NCBI GenBank assembly: GCA_947625765.1
Contig: CANQPP010000001.1
Span: 7,763 to 71,762, forward strand
DNA length: 64,000 nucleotides
From: an uncultured Clostridia bacterium
GTDB taxonomy: Bacteria > Bacillota > Clostridia > Christensenellales > UBA1750
Reading direction: 5' to 3'
The notes beneath the pieces are model-generated. The model made no database searches. It worked only from the letters and a program-made list of their open reading frames with translations, and was not told the DNA's origin. This document shows, piece after piece, positions 102-33,533 of the stretch; within the stretch, counting starts at the first letter, position 1, and each line of letters begins with the position of its first letter. Position numbers and translations under genes: made by a program.

Positions 102-157
102 AATTCTCTGTCGAAACGTGCAATCTATAATTGACAAAAAGGAAAGGGAGAGATGGG

Positions 158-457
158 ATGATTATCAGAGCCGACGTTCGGATCCGGCAGCTGCGGGAAA
201 TGCGCGGCATCACGCAGACGGAGCTGGCGCACGTCATGTCCGTCACCCGTTCCAGCGTGAACGCCTGGGAAATGGGCATCTCCCTGCCCACCGCGGCCAA
301 GCTGGTGGAGCTGAGCGAATACTTCCGCGTCTCCACGGATTACATCCTTGGCCTGGACGGCGGCGAAACGATCCGGCTGGACGGCCTCTCTCCCGAACAA
401 AAGGAGCTTATTTTCGCCCTGCTTTCCTACTTTCACAAGGAAGAGGAAGGCCAATAG
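158..457 (+). CDS. XRE-family helix-turn-helix transcriptional regulator
   Basis: ORF track 131..457. I start it at the in-frame ATG 158, which has a GGGAG SD 7 nt upstream. IRQLREMRGITQTELAHVMSVTRSSVNAWEMG is a canonical Cro/C1-type HTH. Confidence 0.8.
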   Translation: MIIRADVRIRQLREMRGITQTELAHVMSVTRSSVNAWEMGISLPTAAKLVELSEYFRVSTDYILGLDGGETIRLDGLSPEQKELIFALLSYFHKEEEGQ

Positions 458-540: not shown

Positions 541-1461
541 TTAGATCAGCGCCCGGGCGTAGCCCTCCGCGTCGAAGGGCTGCAGGTCGTCCAGCTGCTC
601 GCCCACGCCCACGAAGTACACGGGCAGGCCCAGCTCCTCGCGCACGCTGACCACCACGCCGCCCTTGGCGGTGCCGTCCAGCTTGGTGAGTATGAGGCCG
701 TCCACGTCGGTGGTCTCCTTGAACACGCGGGCCTGCGCCATGCCGTTCTGGCCGGTGGTGCCGTCCAGCACCAGGAGCGTGTACAGCGTGAAGTCGCCCT
801 TTTCCCGCTCGATGACGCGGCGTATCTTCTTCAGCTCCTCCATGAGCCTGCCCTTGTTGTGCAGCCTCCCGGCGGTATCCACCAGCACCAGGTCCATGCG
901 GCGGGCGCGGGCGGCGCTCATGGCGTCGAACACCACGGCCGCCGGGTCGGAACCCTCCTGGTGGGCCACGATGGGCACGCCCGCCCGCTCCGCCCAGACG
1001 GTGAGCTGCTCGGCCGCCGCCGCGCGGAAGGTGTCCCCCGCGGCCAGCAAGACGCGCTTGCCCTCGGCCTTGTACATGCAGGCCAGCTTGCCGATCTGCG
1101 TGGTCTTGCCCACGCCGTTGACGCCCACCACCAGCACCACCGCCGGGCACTTGGGTTGGAAGGGCTCGCTCTTGAGCCGCTCGGCCAGCAGCTCGCGCAG
1201 CAGCTCCTTCACCTGGGCGGGGTCCGCCACGCGCTGTTTCTCGATCCTCTCCTTCAGCTCCGCGATCAGGGACGCGGTGGTCTTGACGCCTATGTCCGCG
1301 CCCAGCAGCACCGCCTCCAGGTCGTCGTAGAACTCCTCGTCCAGCTCCTTATAGTAGCCGGTCAGCTGGTCGATGGCGCGGGTCAGGGATTCGCGCGTCT
1401 TCTGCATCCCCCGGCGCAGCCTGGCAAACAATCCGGCCTTGCGTTCCTTTTCCTCGCTCAC
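541..1461 (-). CDS. ftsY: signal recognition particle receptor FtsY
   Basis: 306 aa. SRP-GTPase motifs are present: GVNGVGKTT (P-loop), DTAGR, TKLDGTAKGG. GTG start overlaps the smc stop (GTGA). Conserved smc-ftsY synteny. Confidence 0.95.
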   Translation of the reverse strand: MSEEKERKAGLFARLRRGMQKTRESLTRAIDQLTGYYKELDEEFYDDLEAVLLGADIGVKTTASLIAELKERIEKQRVADPAQVKELLRELLAERLKSEPFQPKCPAVVLVVGVNGVGKTTQIGKLACMYKAEGKRVLLAAGDTFRAAAAEQLTVWAERAGVPIVAHQEGSDPAAVVFDAMSAARARRMDLVLVDTAGRLHNKGRLMEELKKIRRVIEREKGDFTLYTLLVLDGTTGQNGMAQARVFKETTDVDGLILTKLDGTAKGGVVVSVREELGLPVYFVGVGEQLDDLQPFDAEGYARALI

Positions 1462-4400
1462 GGCGATACCTCCTCCCTTTCGGCCTCAGCGGCCACGTCC
1501 TCCAGGCGCACGCTCACCATGCGGGAGACGCCCCTCTCCTCCATGGCCACGCCGTACAGGCTGTCGCAGCGCTCCATGGTGCCCTTGCGGTGGGTGATGA
1601 CGATGAACTGCGTGTTTTGAGAATAGTTGCGCAGATACTCCGCGAAGCCGTCCACGTTGTTCTCATCCAGCGCAGCCTCGATCTCGTCCAATATGCAGAA
1701 GGGCGAGGGCCGGATGGCCAGCATGGAGAAAAGCAGCGCGATGGCGGTCAGCGCCCGCTCCCCGCCGGAGAGCAGGGACAGCAGCTGCAGCTTCTTTCCC
1801 GGCGGCTGGGCCACGATGTCGATGCCGCAGTTGAGGCAGTCCGCCTCGTCCTGGAGCTTCAGCATCGCCGTGCCGCCGCCGAACAGCTGGGCGAAGATGC
1901 CGCTGAAGTGCTGGTCGATCTGCCGGAAGCGCTCGCGGAACAGCGTCTCCATCTCGCGCGTTAAGTCCCGGACGATGGTCTCCAAGTCCCGCCGCGCCTT
2001 GAGCAGGTCCTCCTTCTGGCCTGAAAGCGCATCGAAGCGCTCCTTCGTCTCCTCGTATTCCTGTATGGCGGCCAGGTTCACGGTGCCAAGGGCGCGCACC
2101 TGGCTGCGGATCTCCTCCACGCGGGCGGCGGCGGACTTTTCGTCGAAGTCCTCCTGCCACAGCTCCTTCGCGCTGCCGTAGGTCAGCTCGTGCCGCTCCC
2201 ACAGGCGGTCGGCCAGCTGCCGCTTTTCGTCCCGGGCGCGATTCAAACGCGTTTCCAGCGAGCGGCTCAAGTCCCTCTGCTTTTCCAGCTCGCCGGACAG
2301 CTCCTCGATCCTCTGCGTCAGGGCGCGCAGCTCTGCCTGGGCGCGGGCGCGCTCGTTGGTCACGCGCGTGAGCTCCCGATCCTTCTCCTGCAGCAGCCCC
2401 TCCGCCTCCCCTTGGTCGGCGCGGTTCTGCTCTAGGGCCCTTTCGTCCTCTGCGCGTCGCGCTTCCAGCGCCTGCCGGGCGCGGGCGCGCACCTCGGCGG
2501 AGCGGCGGATCTGCTCCTCGTCGCCCTCCAGCCGCTCGGCCTCCCGGCGCAGGGCCTCCAGACGGGCCTTGGTCTCGGCGTGGGCCGCGCTCTGCCCGGC
2601 CAGCGCCTGCCGCACCGCCTCCAGCGCCTCGCGGCCCTCCCGCAGCCTCTCGTTGAGCGCGGCGATGTCCGCCTGCGTGGTGGTGGAGGCCTGCTCCGCC
2701 TCCCCGGTCTGCTCGCGCAGCTGGCGGAACTCCTCGTCGATGTTCTTTAAGCTGTCGTCCAGCCGCTCCTTTTCCCCTTCCAGGGAATACACGGCCTCCT
2801 GGGCGGCGGCGCGGGCGTCCTTTGCGGCGGCCAGGCGCGTCTGGACGCGCAGCATCTCCATCTCCTGCTCCCGCAGCCTGCCCGCGATCTCCTCCTGTGC
2901 GGCGCGGTCCGCCTCGCTCTCCCGGCGCAGGCGCTCAAGCTCCTCTTGGCTCTGCCGCAGCCGCTCCTCGAGCCTCGCCACGGCCTGCCTGTGCTCCTGG
3001 ATCTCCCTCTCGCGGGACAAAAGGGACGTGGTCCTCGCCTGCTGGCTGCCGCCGGTCATGGAGCCGCCGGAGTGCATCACGTCGCCCTCCAGCGTCACCA
3101 GGCGGAAGGCGTGGTTGCCCCGCCGCATGATGGCGATGCCGCTGTCCAGATCTTCCGCCAGCACCGTCCTGCCCAGCAGGTTCTCGAACACCCCGCGGAA
3201 CTCCTCGGGGAACTGCACCAGCTCGCTGGCCACGCCCAGACAGCCGGGCATGGACAGCACCTCCCGCTCGCGGGGATTCAGCGTCCGGCCGCGGACGGCG
3301 CTCACCGGCAGGAACGTGGCCCTGCCCAGATGCTCGCGGCGCAGCGTCTCGATCATGCGCTTGGCGTCCTCTTCCCGGCGGCAGACGATGTTCTGCATGG
3401 CGGGGCCCAGCGCCATCTCCACGGCCCTTTCCAGTTCCTTTGGCACGGTCAGGAGGGACGCGGCTACCCCGCAGAGCCCCTCGTCCCCGGCGAAGCGGCG
3501 CAGCAGCTCCCGCACGCTGTTCTGGTAGCCGTCGTAGTCCCGGCGCATCTGCTCGAGCATCTTGAGCCGCGAGGACGCCTCGCGCAGCGCCCCGGCGATC
3601 CTCTGCCCGCCGGCGCTCTCCCGCTCCATCCGCGCCGCCGCCTGCGCGGCGCTCTCCGCCGCGCGCTGGCTCTCCTGTTTTAAGGCCGCCTGCGCGCGCT
3701 GCACGGCCGCGCGGGCGTTTTCCGCTTCCTTCAGGTCGTTCTCGGCGTTTATAACACCCTCGCGCGTCTTTTCCAGCGTCTCGTTGAGCTTCTGCCCCTG
3801 CGCCTGCAGGGATTCGCGGGTGGCGGTCAAGCGGGCGGAGACGGCCTTTACGTCCGTCAGGCGGTTGAAGGAGGCGATCATCTCGCCCTTGGCTTCCTCC
3901 GCGCGCGTTTCCATCGCCCGCACGTCCTCCTCGCGGGCGCGGGCCTCCGCCTCCGTTTGCGCCATGCGGGCCTGCAGCTCGTCCAGCTCCCTCTGGCGGC
4001 TTTCCATGTCCCGCCGCTTTTCGGCCTGCTGGGCGCTGAGGCCGCCCTTTTGCGTGCGGGCGCTCTCTTCCTCGGCGCTTAGGCGTTCCAGCTCCGTCCC
4101 GGCCGAGCCGATCCTCTGGGACAGCAGCTCCCCCTCGCCGCGCAGCATCTCGCTCCGGCGGGTGAGCTCCACCAGCTCCTGGTTGAGAGAGGACAGCGCG
4201 CCGTCCAGCTCCGCGGCCCGGCTCTCGGCCCCGGCGCTTTTTTCCTGCGTGCTTGTTCTTTGCGCCTGCAGCTCCTCCAAGGCGGCCGCGCAGTCCGCGC
4301 TCTGGCCGTCCAGCTTCTCTATGTTCCTGTCCAGCGCGTCGCTCCTGCGCACGAAGGCGTTGGCCTCCAGCACGCGGGTCTCTGCCATCAGGCGGGTATA

Positions 4401-5042
4401 GAGCCGCGCGGCGCGGGACTGCTCCTCCAGCGCGGGCAGCTTCTGGCCCACCTCCTGCAGGATGTCCTCCACCCGCCCCAGGTTCTGGTCGGTGTTCTCC
4501 ATGCGGCGCTCGGCTTCCTGGCGGCGGGCCTTGAACTTGGTGATGCCCGCGGCCTCCTCGAACACGTTGCGCCTGTCCTCGCTGCGCACCGAGAGGATCT
4601 CGTCGATGCGCCCCTGCCCCACGATGGAGTAGCCCTCCCGGCCGATGCCGGTATCGCGGAACAGGTCCACGATGTCCTTTAAGCGGCAGGCGGACTTGTT
4701 GAGCAGGTACTCGCTGTCCCCGCTGCGGTAGACGCGACGGGTCACCTGCACCTCGGCAAAGTCGATGGGCAGCGCGCCGTCCTCGTTGTCGAACACCAGC
4801 GTGACCTCGCAGAAGTTGAGCGCCTTGCGGGCCTGTGTGCCGCCGAAGATCACGTCCTCCATGCGCGCGCCGCGCAGGGACTTGGCGCTCTGCTCGCCCA
4901 ACACCCAGCGCACGGCGTCCGCGATGTTGCTCTTGCCGCTGCCGTTTGGGCCCACCACGCCCGTGATCCCCTCGCCGAACTCCATCCTCGTCCGTTCCGC
5001 GAAGGACTTAAAGCCATAGATCTCAAGCCTTTTCAGTCGCAA
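1458..5042 (-). CDS. smc: chromosome partition protein SMC
   Basis: 1194 aa. N-terminal Walker A (GPNGSGKSN), long coiled coils, a hinge, and C-terminal LSGGE signature plus Walker B (FCILDEIEAALD). TTG start at 5042 with AGAGGA SD 9 nt upstream. Confidence 0.95.
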   Translation of the reverse strand: MRLKRLEIYGFKSFAERTRMEFGEGITGVVGPNGSGKSNIADAVRWVLGEQSAKSLRGARMEDVIFGGTQARKALNFCEVTLVFDNEDGALPIDFAEVQVTRRVYRSGDSEYLLNKSACRLKDIVDLFRDTGIGREGYSIVGQGRIDEILSVRSEDRRNVFEEAAGITKFKARRQEAERRMENTDQNLGRVEDILQEVGQKLPALEEQSRAARLYTRLMAETRVLEANAFVRRSDALDRNIEKLDGQSADCAAALEELQAQRTSTQEKSAGAESRAAELDGALSSLNQELVELTRRSEMLRGEGELLSQRIGSAGTELERLSAEEESARTQKGGLSAQQAEKRRDMESRQRELDELQARMAQTEAEARAREEDVRAMETRAEEAKGEMIASFNRLTDVKAVSARLTATRESLQAQGQKLNETLEKTREGVINAENDLKEAENARAAVQRAQAALKQESQRAAESAAQAAARMERESAGGQRIAGALREASSRLKMLEQMRRDYDGYQNSVRELLRRFAGDEGLCGVAASLLTVPKELERAVEMALGPAMQNIVCRREEDAKRMIETLRREHLGRATFLPVSAVRGRTLNPREREVLSMPGCLGVASELVQFPEEFRGVFENLLGRTVLAEDLDSGIAIMRRGNHAFRLVTLEGDVMHSGGSMTGGSQQARTTSLLSREREIQEHRQAVARLEERLRQSQEELERLRRESEADRAAQEEIAGRLREQEMEMLRVQTRLAAAKDARAAAQEAVYSLEGEKERLDDSLKNIDEEFRQLREQTGEAEQASTTTQADIAALNERLREGREALEAVRQALAGQSAAHAETKARLEALRREAERLEGDEEQIRRSAEVRARARQALEARRAEDERALEQNRADQGEAEGLLQEKDRELTRVTNERARAQAELRALTQRIEELSGELEKQRDLSRSLETRLNRARDEKRQLADRLWERHELTYGSAKELWQEDFDEKSAAARVEEIRSQVRALGTVNLAAIQEYEETKERFDALSGQKEDLLKARRDLETIVRDLTREMETLFRERFRQIDQHFSGIFAQLFGGGTAMLKLQDEADCLNCGIDIVAQPPGKKLQLLSLLSGGERALTAIALLFSMLAIRPSPFCILDEIEAALDENNVDGFAEYLRNYSQNTQFIVITHRKGTMERCDSLYGVAMEERGVSRMVSVRLEDVAAEAEREEVSP

Positions 5043-5098
5043 ATCCGTCTATCCTCTGCATAAAAGTGTATTTTGGAAGGCCGTTTCACCCGACGCCT

Positions 5099-5269
5099 TC
5101 AGCCCTCTTTGGCCATCTTCTCTAAAGCGGCCCTGGCGGCCTCGCGCTGGGCGTCCTTCTTGCTCTCGCCGCTGCCCTGCCCTGCGGGCGTGTCGCCCAG
5201 CATGGCCTCGCAGCTGAACACAGGCCTGTGGCCGTCTATCCTCTGCTTAAAGTATATTTTGGAAAACAT
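5099..5269 (-). pseudogene. duplicated rnc 3' fragment (copy nearest smc) retaining an intact 56-codon ORF
   Basis: ATG at 5269..5267 in the spacer. It reads MFSKIYFKQRIDGHRPVFSCEAMLGDTPAGQGSGESKKDAQREAARAALEKMAKEG*. Last ~40 aa match the rnc C-terminus. No convincing SD; expression unknown. Confidence 0.5.
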
Positions 5270-5284
5270 CTCGGCCCGACGCTT

Positions 5285-5455
5285 TCAGCCCTCTTTGGCC
5301 ATCTTTTCTAAAGCGGCCCTGGCGGCCTCGCGCTGGGCGTCCTTCTTGCTCTCGCCGCTGCCCCGCCCCGCGGGCGTGAAGCCCAGCATGGCCTCGCAGC
5401 TGAACACAGGCCTGTGGCCGTCTATCCTCTGCTCAAAGTGTATTTGGGAAGGCAT
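5285..5455 (-). pseudogene. duplicated rnc 3' fragment (middle copy) retaining an intact 56-codon ORF
   Basis: ATG at 5455..5453, 16 nt after the true rnc stop. It reads MPSQIHFEQRIDGHRPVFSCEAMLGFTPAGRGSGESKKDAQREAARAALEKMAKEG*. Same architecture as 5099-5269. Confidence 0.5.
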
Positions 5456-5470
5456 CTCAGCCCGACGCCT

Positions 5471-6124
5471 TCAGCCCTCTTTGGCCATCTGCTCCAGGGC
5501 GGCCCTGGCGGCCTCGCGCTGGGCGTCCTTCTTGCTCTCGCCGCTGCCCTGTCCCGCGGGCGTGTCGCCCAGCATGGCCTCGTAGGTGAACACGGGCCTG
5601 TGTGGCGGCCCTTCCTGCCCCACCAGCCGGTAGGTGGGCGTTATGCCCATCTCCTTCTGGGTCCTCTCCTGCAGCTCGGACTTGTAGTCCCGGGCCTTCG
5701 GCGGCGCGGGCAGGTTGAGTATGTGCCCGTCGGCCACCTGGAAAGCGGCGTCCAGCCCGCCGTCCAGGTACACGGCGCCCAGGACCGCCTCCACCGCGTC
5801 GGCCAGTATGGAGGGTTTCTCCCTGCCGCCGCTGGCGATCTCCCCGGGCCCTAGGCGCAACAGCCTTCCCAGGCCCCAGTTCACGGCCACGCGGTACAGG
5901 GCGCTCTCCTGCACCAGCGATGCGCGCAGGCGGCTCAAACTCCCCTCGTGCATCTCCCGGTGGCTCTCGTACAGCCTGTGGCTCGAGCAGAGCTGCAAGA
6001 CCGCGTCGCCTAAAAACTCCAGGCGCTGGTTGTTCTCCTGCGCTGCGGAGGGGTGCGTGAGCGCCAGCTCCAGCAGCTTTTCGTCCCGAAAGCGGTAGCC
6101 GATCGTCTCCATCAGCGATTGCAT
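5471..6124 (-). CDS. rnc: ribonuclease III
   Basis: 217 aa. RNase III signature ERLEFLGDAVL is present, followed by a C-terminal dsRBD (...YEAMLGDTPAGQGSGESKKDAQREAARAALEQM). Synteny acpP-rnc-smc. Confidence 0.95.
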   Translation of the reverse strand: MQSLMETIGYRFRDEKLLELALTHPSAAQENNQRLEFLGDAVLQLCSSHRLYESHREMHEGSLSRLRASLVQESALYRVAVNWGLGRLLRLGPGEIASGGREKPSILADAVEAVLGAVYLDGGLDAAFQVADGHILNLPAPPKARDYKSELQERTQKEMGITPTYRLVGQEGPPHRPVFTYEAMLGDTPAGQGSGESKKDAQREAARAALEQMAKEG

Positions 6125-6178: not shown

Positions 6179-6216
6179 GCCGCAAGGGGCGTTCTGCCCC
6201 CTGCGGCGCGTTTTTT
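6179..6216 (+). other. GC-rich stem-loop plus T6 in the acpP-rnc spacer (terminator-like only on the plus strand)
   Basis: GCCGCAAGGGGC (6179-6190) pairs with GCCCCCTGCGGC (6196-6207), one mismatch and a 5-nt loop, then GCGTTTTTT (6208-6216). On the coding (minus) strand no U-run follows the hairpin. Confidence 0.45.
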
Positions 6217-6519: not shown

Positions 6520-7542
6520 TCAGGCGTTCCCGGGGGCCTGTTCGACGCTCCCCAGGGCGCGCTTGATGCTGTCCACAAGGCCGGAATCCACGCAGGAGGC
6601 GGCCTGCAGGATGGCCCGGGCGAAGGCGTGCGCCGTGGAGGAACCGTGGGCCTTGATCATCACGCCGTCCACGCCCAGGAGCACGGCCCCGCCGTATTCC
6701 TGATAGTCCAGCTTGTGCTTGAGCTGGCGCAGCCTGGGCTTGAGCACCGCGGCGGCCAGCTTCGAGGGCAGATCCGCGGTCATGGCGCTCTTGAGCTGGG
6801 TAAAGATGAAGCCGATGGCGCCCTCCGTGGCCTTGAGCAGCACGTTGCCCGCAAAGCCGTCGGTCACGACCACCTGCACGTCGCCCGTGAGCGCGTCGCG
6901 GCCCTCGATGTTGCCGAAGAAGGAGATGCCCTCCTGCTCCTTGATGAGCGCATAGGCCTCCTTGCTCAGCTCGTTGCCCTTCTCGTCCTCCGCGCCCACA
7001 TTCAAAAGCCCCACCTTGGGCTCCGTCTGTCCTAAGACGCCGCGCATGTAGGCGGTGCCCATCAGGGCGAACTGGCGCAGGTATTCGGGCTTGCAGTCCA
7101 TGTTGGCGCCGCTGTCCAGCAGCAGGCAGGGCGTGCCCTTCATCGTGGGCAGGGTCGGCGCCAGGGCCGGCCTGTCGATGCCGCGGATGCGGCCCACCTT
7201 GAAGATGCCGCCGGCCAGCCACGCGCCGGTGGAGCCGGCGGAAACGGCGGCCTCGGCCTCGCCGTGCTTTAGGCGCATCATCGCCACCACCATGGAGGAG
7301 TCCAGCTTGCGCCGGACCGCCATCGCGGGGCTGTCGTGGTTGGTGATCTCGCCGGGAGCCTCCACGATCTCCAAGCGGCTCTTGTCGTATTCCTTGCCCT
7401 CCAGCAGCTTTTCGAGCCTTTCCGTCGGCCCGCAGAGCTGGATCGCCAGGTCTTCCCTTTCGCCCAGGGCCTCCAAGCAGCCCTCCACGATCGCGGCGGG
7501 CGCGTTGTCGCCGCCCAGAGCGTCCACGGCTATTTTGCGCAT
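6520..7542 (-). CDS. plsX: phosphate acyltransferase PlsX
   Basis: Start moved to [15 protein letters not shown] (ATG 7542, GGGGG SD). Typical PlsX N-terminus and length (340 aa). Synteny with acpP. Confidence 0.95.
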
Positions 7543-7616
7543 CGAATCAAAGCCCCCTGTCCGCCTGCCGTCCCACGTCCTGTCTAAAGCGCGGGGCCGT
7601 ATTTTTTCACGCATCT

Positions 7617-30109: not shown

Positions 30110-31090
30110 ATGCTGCTACAAATACTGATCCCCACACTGCTTTTGGGCGGCATGGGCGCGCTGTTCGCCGCGGGCCTGGCCTACGCCGGCAAGAAGCTGG
30201 CGGTGCCCCAGGACGAGCGCATCGACCAGGTGCGCGCCTGCCTGCCGGGCGCGGGCTGCGGCGCCTGCGGCTACACCGGCTGCGACAGCTACGCCGCCGC
30301 CGTGGTGCAGGAGGGCGCGGCCACGAACCTCTGCCCCGTGGGCGGGGCAGCCGCCGCGCAGCAGATCGCCAAGATCATGGGCGCGGACGCCTCCGAGGCC
30401 CCCGTGCGCATGGTGGCCACGGTGCTCTGCCGGGGCGACAACGACATGTGCCACAGCCGCTTTGAGTACAAGGGCCTGCAGGAATGCCGCGCGGCCTTCC
30501 TGGCCTCCGGCGGGGCGAAGGCCTGCAAATACTCCTGCCTGGGCCTGGGCTCCTGCGAAAAGGTGTGCGCCTTCGGGGCCATCCACGTGGAGAACGGCCT
30601 GGTGCACATCGACCCGGACAAGTGCACCGGCTGCAAGCGCTGCATCTCCGTCTGCCCCAAGAACGTGATCCGCTTGGAGCCCGCCGACCTGCGCTCCGTG
30701 CTGCGCTGCCGCGCCCTGGAGAAGGGCCGCGCCGTGCGCGACGTCTGCACCGCCGGGTGCATCGCCTGCGGCAAGTGCGAAAGGAGCTGCAAATTCGGCG
30801 CCATCACGCTGCAGGACAACCTGCCCGTTGTGGACATGGAGAAGTGCGTGGGCTGCATGGAGTGCGTGCGCGTCTGCCCCACCGGCGCGATGGACGGCGA
30901 TTTGAGCAAGCGCAAGAAGGCCCATGTGGACGCCGAGAAGTGCGTGGGCTGCACCATCTGCGCCAAGCAGTGCCGCTTTGACGCCATCCACGGCGCGCTG
31001 AAGGAGAAGCACTCCGTCGACCAGGAGCTCTGCACCGGCTGCGGGCTCTGCGCCGCCAAGTGCCCCAAGAAGGCCATCACGCTGGAGTGA
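30110..31090 (+). CDS. rnfB: Rnf complex subunit B with extra ferredoxin domains
   Basis: 326 aa. N-terminal TM helix, a CGACGYTGC cluster, then several CxxCxxCxxxCP 4Fe-4S motifs (CTGCKRCISVCP, CIACGKCERSC, CVGCMECVRVCP, CVGCTICAKQC, CTGCGLCAAKCP). Confidence 0.92.
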   Translation: MLLQILIPTLLLGGMGALFAAGLAYAGKKLAVPQDERIDQVRACLPGAGCGACGYTGCDSYAAAVVQEGAATNLCPVGGAAAAQQIAKIMGADASEAPVRMVATVLCRGDNDMCHSRFEYKGLQECRAAFLASGGAKACKYSCLGLGSCEKVCAFGAIHVENGLVHIDPDKCTGCKRCISVCPKNVIRLEPADLRSVLRCRALEKGRAVRDVCTAGCIACGKCERSCKFGAITLQDNLPVVDMEKCVGCMECVRVCPTGAMDGDLSKRKKAHVDAEKCVGCTICAKQCRFDAIHGALKEKHSVDQELCTGCGLCAAKCPKKAITLE

Positions 31091-31114
31091 TCCTCCGCAT
31101 CCAACGAACCCGCC

Positions 31115-31153
31115 GAAGCCCCCGGCCAGCAAACGCCGAGGGCTTCTTCTTTT
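31115..31153 (+). terminator. probable terminator of the rnf operon
   Basis: GAAGCCC (31115-31121) pairs with GGGCTTC (31140-31146), an 18-nt loop, followed by TTCTTTT. Confidence 0.5.
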
Positions 31154-31154
31154 C

Positions 31155-31720
31155 CCCAAAAGCGCCTTCTTTTGGGCAATTCAAGCACACCGGAACCACC
31201 CAAAGCCCCGGCTTCCCTTTCCTTTCAAAGAAAAAACCCGGCCTTATACGGGAAAAGCGCCTCCCGCCTTCCATAGAAGAAAACCACCCGGCAGCGCTCT
31301 CTTCGTGAAAAGAACCACCTTTCCCGCTTTTCTTTTCAAAAAAAGGCCCTGACTTCATAAAAAACGACCCAGCCCTTATAGGAAAACCGTCTCCGCCTTC
31401 ATAAGAAAAAGTGGTGCGCCTTTATTAAAAGCCGCCCGGCGGCGCTCTCTTCGTGAAAAGAACCCCTTTCCCGCCTTTCTTTTCAAAAAAAGGCCCTGTC
31501 TTCATAAAAAACGACCCCGCCTTCACGGAAAAGCGCCCCTGCCTTCATCAGAAAACCGTCTCCACCTTCATCAAAAAAGCCACTCGCCTTCATCAAAAAG
31601 CCGCCCGGCGGCACTTTTTTCGTGAAACGAGCCGTCTTTCCATGACTTTCTATTGAAAAAAGCTCCTACTTTCAAAAAACGGCCCATCTCCGCAGAAAAA
31701 CCGCCTCCCTTCCGCGCACG
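31155..31720. repeat. non-coding array of degenerate 21-23 bp A-tract units nested in ~147-170 bp higher-order repeats
   Basis: The CTTCA(T/C) core sits at 31353, 31375 (CTTAT variant), 31397 and 31420 (CTTTAT). It recurs at 31500, 31521, 31543, 31566 and 31588, with spacings of 21-23 bp. The longer block CCCGGCRGC...TTCGTGAAA begins at 31287, 31435 and 31605. A ~50-nt near-identical segment (TTTCCCGC..TTTCAAAAAAAGGCCCTGNCTTCATAAAAAACGACCC) occurs at ~31320 and ~31467. Confidence 0.85.
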
Positions 31721-31721
31721 C

Positions 31722-31761
31722 AAAAGGAGCCGGGACGGCTGCGCGCCGCTCCGGCTCCTTT
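31722..31761. terminator. bidirectional terminator after proS
   Basis: GGAGCCGG (31726-31733) pairs with CCGGCTCC (31751-31758), flanked by AAAA (31722-31725) and TTT. On the minus strand the hairpin is followed by TTTT. Confidence 0.6.
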
Positions 31762-31787: not shown

Positions 31788-33533
31788 TTACAGGCGGCAG
31801 TCCAGCTTGGCCAGCTCGTCGCGGACCAGCTTCTCCACGAAGTCCGCGACCTCAGCCACGGCGGGCTTTTCCTGCAGGCTCTTGTCGCGCAGGGAGACCT
31901 CCAGCGCGCCGTTCTTCAGGGCGCGGGGGCTGACCACCACGCGCACGGGCACGCCCAGCAGGTCCGCGTCGGAGAACATGACGCCGGCGCTCACGGCGCG
32001 GTCGTCCAGGATCACCTCGATGCCGCGGCCTTCCAGCTCCTCGTAGAGGGCCTTGGCCGCCTGCGCCACCTCGGTCTGGTCGGCGCGCAGCACACAGATG
32101 TGCACCTGCCAGGGCGCGATGGAGATGGGCCAGATGGGGCCGTAGTCGTCGCGGCTGACCTCGCACACGGAGGCGGCCAGGCGGCCCAGCCCGATGCCGT
32201 AGCAGCCCATGATGGGCGTCTGCAGGCTGCCGTCCTGGGCCAGGTAGCGCATGTTCATGGGCTTTGTGTACTTATCGCCCAGCTGGAAGATGTTGCCCAC
32301 CTCGATGCCGCGCTTTAGGTCCAGGCTGTGCCTGCCGCACTCGGGGCAGACGCCGCCCTGCTTGGCCTTGGCAACGTCAACATAGCTGACCTCGCCCACG
32401 TCGCGCCGGATGTTGAACCCGGTGTAGTGGTAGTCCTTCTCGTTGGCGCCGGTGGTCAGGCACTCGATGCCCTGCAGGGAGCTGTCGAACACCACGGTCA
32501 CGTTCTGTGGCAGGCCCATGGGGCCGCAGAAGCCCAGCACCAGGGGCGCGTTCTCCTCGTCGTACACGGCGGGGTGCACCTCGCACCCCAGGTGGTTGCG
32601 CAGCTTGGTCTCGTTGACGTCCAGATCGCCGCGCACGAAGGCCACCACGGGGGTATCGTCCGCGTTGCGCTGGTACATGACGGCCTTGCAGGTCTGCTCG
32701 GGCGTAATGTGCAGGAGCGCACACAGCTCCTCGATGGTCTTGGTGCCCGGCGTGTGCACCTTCTGCAGGGGCTGCTCTTCGCCCGGCTCGTTCTGCGTCA
32801 CGCTGGGCGCGGCCTCCATGTTGGCGCGGTAGCCGCACTCGGGGCACAGGACGATGGTGTCCTCGCCCACGTCGGTCAGCAGCATGTATTCGTGGGAGAC
32901 CTTGCCGCCCATCATGCCCGAATCCGACGCTACGGCCACCACCTGCGGGATGCCCACGCGGGCGAAGATGCGGTTGTAGGCCTCATAGCAGCGGGCGTAA
33001 TAGGCCTCCAGATCCTCCTGGGAGGTGTGGAAGGAGTAGCCGTCCTTCATGGTGAACTCGCGCACGCGGATCAGGCCGCCGCGGGTGCGGGGCTCGTCGC
33101 GGAATTTGGTCTGGATCTGGTAGATCATGAAGGGGAACTGGGTATAGGAGTCGACCACGTCCCGCGCCAGGTGCACGGCGGCCTCCTCGTGGGTCATGCC
33201 CAGCACCATATCGCTGCCGCTGCGGTCCTTAAAGCGCAGCATCTCGCTGCCGATGGACTCATAGCGGCCGGACTCGCGCCACAGGCTGGCCGGCATCGCC
33301 ACGGGGAAGAGCACCTCCTGGCCGCCGATCCTGTCCATCTCCTCGCGCACGATGTTCTCGATCTTGCGGATCACGCGCTTTCCGGGTGTCAGCAGCGTGT
33401 AGATGCCGTTGCCCACGGCCTTGATGTAGCCGCCGCGGATCATCAGCGCCTGGCTCTGGATCTGGCAGTCGGCGGGCGTTTCCTTAAAGCGCCTGGAGAC
33501 CAGTTCGGAAAGATACATCGGGTTCTGACACAT
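31788..33533 (-). CDS. proS: proline--tRNA ligase (bacterial type, with INS editing domain)
   Basis: 581 aa. Class II aaRS motifs are present (FRDEPRTRGGLIRVREFTMKD, GCYGIGLGR) with an insertion domain between motifs 2 and 3. Start is ambiguous between ATG 33533 and ATG 33518 (MYLSEL...); neither has a good SD. Confidence 0.92.
   Translation of the reverse strand: MCQNPMYLSELVSRRFKETPADCQIQSQALMIRGGYIKAVGNGIYTLLTPGKRVIRKIENIVREEMDRIGGQEVLFPVAMPASLWRESGRYESIGSEMLRFKDRSGSDMVLGMTHEEAAVHLARDVVDSYTQFPFMIYQIQTKFRDEPRTRGGLIRVREFTMKDGYSFHTSQEDLEAYYARCYEAYNRIFARVGIPQVVAVASDSGMMGGKVSHEYMLLTDVGEDTIVLCPECGYRANMEAAPSVTQNEPGEEQPLQKVHTPGTKTIEELCALLHITPEQTCKAVMYQRNADDTPVVAFVRGDLDVNETKLRNHLGCEVHPAVYDEENAPLVLGFCGPMGLPQNVTVVFDSSLQGIECLTTGANEKDYHYTGFNIRRDVGEVSYVDVAKAKQGGVCPECGRHSLDLKRGIEVGNIFQLGDKYTKPMNMRYLAQDGSLQTPIMGCYGIGLGRLAASVCEVSRDDYGPIWPISIAPWQVHICVLRADQTEVAQAAKALYEELEGRGIEVILDDRAVSAGVMFSDADLLGVPVRVVVSPRALKNGALEVSLRDKSLQEKPAVAEVADFVEKLVRDELAKLDCRL

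Follow-up and report, generated by a model that had tools for sequence, protein, structure and literature searches.

A tandem array of the rnc 3′ end and smc leader in an uncultured Clostridia bacterium

Anatomy of the rnc–smc array

The window, by which we mean the whole 64,000-nucleotide (64 kb) stretch of DNA analyzed here from an uncultured Clostridia bacterium, carries on its minus strand an operon in the order plsX (6520–7614), acpP, rnc, a tandem array, smc, and ftsY (541–1461). The array, which occupies 5045–5604 between rnc and smc, consists of three direct tandem units of 186–187 nt each, about 90% alike, and is the subject of this text. An earlier note on the same DNA had already described the plsX–acpP–rnc–smc–ftsY setting and the three head-to-tail copies with a 186–187 bp period and anchors at 5045, 5232, and 5418; the former was confirmed, and the latter were recovered alike by Tandem Repeats Finder (TRF), a repeat search, and a MAFFT alignment. 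For the reasons given below, we consider that this array is probably (at roughly 0.75) a lineage-specific, near-neutral minisatellite, or variable-number tandem repeat (VNTR), that is merely tolerated within the operon. The features of the locus, including its open reading frames (ORFs), are as follows.

5471–6124, minus strand: rnc (RNase III, 217 aa), an ORF with Pfam matches to Ribonucleas_3_3, Ribonuclease_3, and a full dsrm (residues 147–213, profile positions 1–66 of 66)
5418–5604, minus strand: repeat unit C, made of the rnc tail (5471–5602) and a spacer (5418–5470) with an in-frame ATG at 5453–5455
5232–5417, minus strand: repeat unit B (186 nt), made of an rnc pseudo-tail (5285–5416; D to F and Q to R) and a spacer (5232–5284) with an ATG at 5267–5269
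5045–5231, minus strand: repeat unit A (187 nt), made of an rnc pseudo-tail (5099–5230) and a spacer (5045–5098) that has no ATG and holds the smc Shine-Dalgarno sequence
5052–5057, minus strand: smc Shine-Dalgarno sequence AGAGGA, 9 nt upstream of the TTG at 5040–5042, within GCAGAGGATAGACGGATTTGCGACTG
1458–5042, minus strand: smc (1194 aa, TTG start), an ORF downstream of the array, with a homologous MRLKKLEIYGFKSF start in relatives
5285–5455, minus strand: mini-ORF 1 (56 aa, MPSQIHFEQRIDGHRPVFSCEAMLGFTPAGRGSGESKKDAQREAARAALEKMAKEG), which starts in the unit C spacer and stops at the unit B TGA
5099–5269, minus strand: mini-ORF 2 (56 aa, MFSKIYFKQRIDG...), which starts in the unit B spacer and stops at the unit A TGA
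5073–5585, plus strand: antisense shadow ORF (170 aa), which spans all three units and is, on paper, a repeat protein of 3 × 62 aa

By far the strongest array that TRF reports within the window, this one is delimited at 5045–5602 with a period of 186, 3.0 copies, 90% matches, 0% indels, and a score of 912, while the repeat search spaces the three copies by 186 nt from the anchor CCGTCTATCCTCTGC (15–20 nt), and the mean column identity of the three units aligned with MAFFT is 95%. Pairwise, the units diverge by 9–11%, with private variants flanking each junction on both sides, and their longest identical runs reach only 51–57 nt, so that they can be told apart from one another. The differences in their aligned translations, GDTPAGQ against GFTPAGR and ALEKM against ALEQM, had been read correctly in the earlier note. 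A BLAST search of the unit against the window returned the three local copies only.

Each unit, previously described as the rnc 3′ end plus the smc leader, can now be defined more exactly as 132 nt of rnc (43 codons from His-Arg-Pro, followed by TGA) and a 53–54 nt spacer that ends in GCAGAGGATAGACGG, after which, in the last unit, ATTTG... comes next. In unit C, the coding part is the 3′ end of rnc itself, namely its final 43 codons and stop (5471–5602). Because 186 nt amount to 62 codons, the entire array stands in the rnc frame, broken only by the TGA stops at 5471–5473, 5285–5287, and 5099–5101 (minus strand). Both internal spacers hold an in-frame ATG that begins 16 nt past the stop (15 nt lie between), which yields the two ATG-started, 56-codon minus-strand mini-ORFs that the earlier note had pointed out and with which the ORF list agrees. 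The last spacer, before smc, has an ACG in place of this ATG, plus a 1-nt insertion.

In keeping with what had been proposed, both flanking genes are intact, rnc as an ORF of 217 aa in which Pfam finds a full RNase III with its double-stranded RNA-binding domain (dsRBD), and smc as the ORF at 1458–5042. The leftmost copy was said to supply both the ribosome-binding site and the TTG start of smc; the first part stands, as AGAGGA lies in unit A, whereas the TTG lies just beyond the repeat boundary and thus outside the repeat. The same AGAGGA recurs in units B and C, there without a start codon at a suitable distance. From the last TGA of the array to the smc TTG there are 56 nt, and 428 nt separate rnc from smc in total.

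Occurrence and variation of the array in other assemblies

The source lineage is rare, being absent from the GTDB representatives and the JGI metagenomes that were scanned. Indeed, the scan of GTDB species representatives with the rnc protein found no relative, that of JGI metagenomes with an invariant 29-mer found no match, and a degenerate GESKKDAQREAA pattern gave 0 matches in the JGI metagenomes and 0 in the GTDB genomes. A 100% identical rnc protein (P0001) is present on one NCBI contig of 155 kb only, and exact-protein look-ups of rnc (the window sequence, P0001) and of mini-ORF 1 returned no result. The exact-protein look-up of mini-ORF 2 and its cluster mates, on the other hand, led to four short ENA metagenome contigs (L007–L010), on which the comparison of the array between genomes is based.

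Two of these contigs, which belong to two different ENA assemblies, reproduce the window at 100%: L008 (590 bp) corresponds to 5361–4772 and L009 (537 bp) to 5361–4825. Both cover the end of unit B, the B spacer, the B-to-A junction with the private variants of both units, unit A, and the start of smc, and both begin exactly where the 51–57 nt stretch common to all units begins, as is expected of a contig break induced by a repeat. Moreover, the junction that joins GGATAGACGG directly to CCACAGGCC was found in four independent ENA assemblies (L007–L010). As this junction is impossible without a real duplication, an assembly stutter is very unlikely and the array is real in the genome. The earlier note had argued against a stutter, and it is borne out by the identity of L008 and L009 with the window and by the related arrays of L007 and L010.

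The other two contigs come from distinct strains. L007 shows 3 changes from the window in 203 nt of unique rnc sequence (window 5603–5805 against L007 1–203; 98.5% identity), and its layout runs from rnc through a spacer with an ATG, one extra unit, and a spacer to the smc start, that is, two units. L010 represents a more distant strain (86–92% identical to the window) and holds at least three units, the middle one of which bears two deletions, one of 14 nt at the junction and one of 24 nt within the helix (QREAARAA). It also has a +1 insertion in the spacer that precedes the middle unit and another in the third unit, just past the junction; as a result of these indels, neither of the original spacer-ATG frames reads the dsRBD tail. 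Across strains, the copy number is therefore three in the window, two in L007, and at least three in L010. Such a combination of two units in one relative and deletions and frameshifts in another favors the neutral minisatellite that the earlier note had listed among its options.

The variants carried by the units are also distributed as a mosaic. The codons TTC (Phe) and CGG (Arg) mark the middle unit both in the window and in L010, which implies that these units are orthologous and that the three-unit state predates the split between the two strains, while GAT versus GAC is strain-specific across all copies. The rnc tails of L007 (204–335) and L010 (34–165) read GCTTTAGAGAAG or ACTTTAGAGAAG (ALEKM / TLEKM) and thereby resemble the extra copies, to which GCTTTAGAGAAG is confined in the window. 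The window rnc tail (5471–5602), for its part, bears a private cluster, GCCCTGGAGCAG, in which four changes within eight bases yield ALEQM, and this cluster may mark a short tract of conversion or recombination within the functional gene. When the window is set against L007, 11 of 185 nt are changed in the orthologous repeat unit as opposed to 3 of 203 in the adjacent unique rnc sequence, so that the repeat is evolving at several times the pace of its flank. Overall, a mosaic of this kind, seen among copies as well as strains, is indicative of unequal crossing-over and gene conversion.

Beyond these strains, the next closest rnc genes share 57–67% amino acid identity and come from metagenome-assembled genomes labeled Christensenellaceae or Christensenellales. 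They lie in the same plsX–acpP–rnc–smc context, with an rnc–smc gap of 1 nt (P0002, L001–L006; P0003, L011) or 12 nt (P0005, L013), the smc Shine-Dalgarno sequence being located within the end of rnc, and no repeat stands between rnc and smc at the loci of P0002, P0003, and P0005. Both the 53-nt spacer and the array are thus peculiar to the lineage under study. As a side observation, two assemblies in the nearest relative (L004, NCBI GCA_050309765.1, and L005) break 117–121 nt past the rnc stop, within the smc start; L001 continues through rnc–smc without a repeat, and these breaks are probably a coincidence.

Origin of the array and competing readings

A plausible scenario can be drawn for the birth of this minisatellite. 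In an ancestor of this uncultured, Christensenellales-like lineage, rnc and smc would already have been parted by a spacer of about 53 nt that gave smc its own Shine-Dalgarno sequence. Illegitimate recombination or slippage would then have fused the spacer end (...GGATAGACGG) with the His codon that lies 43 codons ahead of the rnc stop (CCACAGGCC...), with little if any microhomology (...CCGCC/CCACAGG in rnc, the slash marking the boundary), and so doubled a block of 186 nt; the L007 and L010 versions of the rnc junction site make this duplication boundary clean. Later, as the comparison of strains suggests, homologous unequal crossing-over and gene conversion would have altered the copy number and shuffled the variants. 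Such an insert may be tolerated because smc has an independent Shine-Dalgarno sequence, every unit has a stop, and RNase III stays intact: the first unit completes a normal RNase III, each unit has a TGA of its own, and the last unit provides the ribosome-binding site of smc.

On this scenario, the mini-ORFs are probably by-products of the in-frame duplication, as a block whose length is a multiple of three automatically confers an open frame on each extra unit. Their intactness is expected by chance. When 10 random substitutions were simulated, the mini-ORF start was kept and the frame remained open in about 65% of cases, and when the spacer was shuffled, 18% of trials produced an in-frame ATG with an open frame, a share that rose to 42% when any start codon was counted. 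If the mini-ORFs are translated at all, the sole plausible benefit would be that the 428-nt interval from rnc to smc stays occupied by ribosomes.

Several observations nevertheless weigh against near-neutrality. Between A-type extra copies of different strains, the Nei-Gojobori synonymous and non-synonymous differences (Sd/Nd) are 4/1 and 5/1, which corresponds to a pN/pS of 0.05–0.07 on small counts, and this synonymous excess could mean purifying selection on the peptide. Likewise, none of the extra copies seen lacks an ORF for the dsRBD tail, which persists even in the degraded unit 2 of L010 (P0125, 40 aa), and strains about 10% apart at this locus have an array of three or more units in common, so that it has been in place for some time. 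The strain comparison itself also relies on contigs with a coverage of 1.7–2× (L007, L010), so a collapse might account for the two-unit count of L007 and read errors for the single-base frameshifts of L010; its 14- and 24-nt deletions, by contrast, cannot be explained as read errors. As for the synonymous excess, its source in our view may be gene conversion from the rnc tail, which is under selection: the alignment shows variants passing between that tail and the extra copies, and the excess is therefore no proof of selection on the mini-ORFs. Unit B against unit A of the window gives 2 synonymous versus 3 non-synonymous differences (Nei-Gojobori; small counts), and a by-eye count from the alignment of all extra copies gives about 7 synonymous, about 7 non-synonymous, and several indels. 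Nonetheless, it is to the synonymous excess alone that a functional reading owes its survival.

Under the functional reading that survives best, the mini-ORFs act as a ribosome relay comparable to the one described for mycobacterial interspersed repetitive units (MIRUs). Ribosomes would terminate at each TGA and reinitiate at the ATG that starts 16 nt downstream, so that the extra 372 nt would stay translated, guarding the operon from Rho-dependent polarity or decay and preserving the expression of smc–ftsY; selection would then keep open frames rather than peptides. The layout is suggestive in this regard, since the units share one frame and an ATG follows soon after the stop in each internal spacer, whereas the last spacer, before smc, has none. 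The persistence of the tail ORF in L007 (P0123) and in the degraded unit 2 of L010 (P0125) is also consistent with a relay, as is the 1–12 nt rnc–smc gap of the closest relatives, which would fit an ancestral coupling. Besides, short ORFs that deliver ribosomes and MIRU ORFs coupled to a neighboring gene have been described (PMC12548453), and translation of the mini-ORFs by reinitiation is possible, although nothing here requires it; it would recall how MIRUs are believed to lie without harm between coupled genes (PMC12548453). However, chance alone would be expected to leave the frames open, given this level of divergence and GC content, the spacer ATGs have no good Shine-Dalgarno sequence upstream, and the original ATG frames are shifted in L010. 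In addition, the last stop lies 56 nt from the smc TTG, as against 1–12 nt in relatives, and smc has its own AGAGGA. We therefore regard it as unlikely that a mini-ORF relay keeps the essential smc–ftsY genes expressed across a 428-nt insert that would have broken the ancestral 1–12 nt gap, possibly with the further contribution of partial-dsRBD peptides interacting with RNase III.

That the mini-ORFs encode functional small peptides derived from the dsRBD and able, for instance, to modulate RNase III or dsRNA binding, is a highly improbable alternative, and the corresponding option of the earlier note is disfavored by their partial dsrm matches, a poor AlphaFold2 model, and the intactness expected by chance. 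The mini-ORFs do score 36–40 bits against dsrm, above the cut-off of 23, both products are annotated as proteins in NCBI and ENA assemblies (that of mini-ORF 2 on the ENA contigs L008 and L009), and the low pN/pS between A-type copies would fit a selected peptide. Their match, however, covers only profile positions 19–66 of 66 in mini-ORF 1 and 27–66 of 66 in mini-ORF 2, that is, strands 2–3 and helix 2 of the dsRBD, helix 1 and strand 1 of the complete alpha1-beta1-beta2-beta3-alpha2 domain being missing. For mini-ORF 1, AlphaFold2 predicts a C-terminal helix only and no sheet (mean pLDDT 66, pTM 0.27). Furthermore, the N-terminal part that derives from the spacer varies freely (MFSKIYFKQ, MPSQIHFEQ, MPSKIHFEQ), unit 2 of L010 lacks eight residues of the RNA-binding helix (bracketed in KKDA[QREAARAA]LEKM) while its unit 3 is frameshifted relative to the ATG, and no homologue of the mini-ORFs outside the lineage was found among 5.8 billion protein clusters.

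It seems just as far-fetched that the array works as a cis-acting RNA (an RNase III substrate, an attenuator, or a processing site) controlling how strongly rnc or smc is expressed, or that read-through of its TGA codons extends RNase III with partial dsRBDs. The site does lie inside the operon of RNase III, and as the units stand in the rnc frame, TGA read-through would add modules of 62 residues. Yet direct repeats do not form dsRNA, and a structured RNA or RNase III substrate was rejected on ordinary fold z-scores against shuffles (−1.65 for the array, −0.61 for a single unit), on a repeat search that found no inverted repeats inside the array, and on Rfam, which gave nothing at the gathering threshold and one chance-level match (E = 0.23) that falls outside the repeat on the other strand. 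Recoding of TGA was rejected as well, since TGA is an ordinary stop that ends 19 of the 40 long ORFs, smc and plsX among them, and frame continuity is broken in L010.

Further candidates were discarded. An internal promoter or terminator was rejected, as no such pattern was found on the coding (minus) strand of the array; three weak terminator-like matches lie on the antisense strand, one in each copy. The antisense ORF at 5073–5585 was rejected as a gene, being a GC-rich shadow ORF with stops in L007 and L010. Template and variable repeats of a diversity-generating retroelement (DGR) were rejected because only 3 of 9 differences (A vs. C) and 3 of 12 (B vs. C) fall at A, and the copies show T>C, G>A, and G>C changes just as often. 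For an origin of the spacer from the smc 5′ end, the sole sign seen by eye was a short GGCT(T)GAGAT similarity.

Finally, the notion that the array is an artefact, with a single rnc tail stuttered or strain variants concatenated by the assembler, could draw on the single long assembly of the organism (one contig, P0001) and on the lack of its genome among the GTDB representatives and JGI metagenomes, but it is hardly credible given the duplication-only junction in L007–L010, the B-to-A junction reproduced with its private variants at 100% in L008 and L009, and copies that lie 9–11% apart with private variants on either side of each junction.

Some further features of the window can be mentioned here. 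The 116-nt acpP–rnc intergenic region, which folds with z = −2.0, holds at 6179–6207 (minus strand) a perfect 12-bp GC-rich hairpin without a U tail (GCCGCAGGGGGC-AGAAC-GCCCCUUGCGGC), which could be a candidate attenuator or RNase III autoregulatory target. Downstream of proS (31788–33533, minus strand), an intergenic stretch of about 630 nt at 31160–31760 contains about a dozen AAAAACGACCCCGCCTTCATCAG-like repeats of 22–23 nt and, according to TRF, a 147-nt period repeated 1.9 times, with no Rfam match; the adjoining 347-aa ORF (30116–31159) has no Pfam match. The strand opposite ftsY encodes, next to the ftsY 3′ end at 131–457 (plus strand), a small XRE-type HTH_3 protein of 108 aa (Pfam E = 1.5e-15).

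Relation to known repeats and meaning of the array

With regard to known systems, the array is a further example of a bacterial VNTR or minisatellite, built in this case from a gene 3′ end and an intercistronic spacer, and it is not a MIRU, a DGR, a structured RNA, or a dsRBD protein family. Like bacterial VNTRs, it consists of head-to-tail units (of 186 nt here) that are homogenized and shuffled by unequal crossing-over and gene conversion, has a copy number that varies between strains (with the caveat of a possible collapse in L007 and L010), is real in the genome, and has no detectable function. It differs from a typical VNTR in that its unit is a recognizable gene 3′ end plus spacer rather than anonymous intergenic DNA, that it lies between two essential and normally tightly coupled genes, and that its units have already diverged by about 10%.

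MIRUs lie between co-oriented genes of operons and carry a short ORF in the direction of the flanking genes; their insertion need not disturb downstream translation, their ORF being coupled to the neighboring gene, and short ORFs that serve only to deliver ribosomes have been described (PMC12548453). The array resembles them in standing between the co-oriented rnc and smc (minus strand) with mini-ORFs on the same strand. Whereas the MIRU ORF overlaps the neighboring start with a −4 spacing, however, 15 nt separate each internal TGA from its ATG here and 56 nt separate the last TGA from the TTG; the unit, at 186 nt, is of the wrong size and derives locally from rnc; and, unlike dispersed MIRUs, it occurs at this one site within the window. 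The array also recalls partial tandem gene duplications that leave 3′-end pseudogene fragments, as a fragment (the last 43 rnc codons) likewise lies beside its undamaged parent, but the duplicated block here includes the ribosome-binding region of the downstream gene and has been re-amplified and become polymorphic between strains.

Beyond this lineage, the array has little significance. It shows that a tandem duplication can be absorbed inside a conserved and normally tight operon junction when the duplicated block brings its own stop and the ribosome-binding site of the downstream gene. It also illustrates how the in-frame duplication of a gene fragment creates small ORFs that gene callers annotate and that Pfam matches, both mini-ORFs sitting in public protein collections with a dsrm match. 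For this uncultured organism, the array could serve as a strain-typing marker, and if its mini-ORFs did relay ribosomes from rnc to smc, it would represent an independent, locally generated parallel to the MIRU arrangement in a Clostridia lineage.

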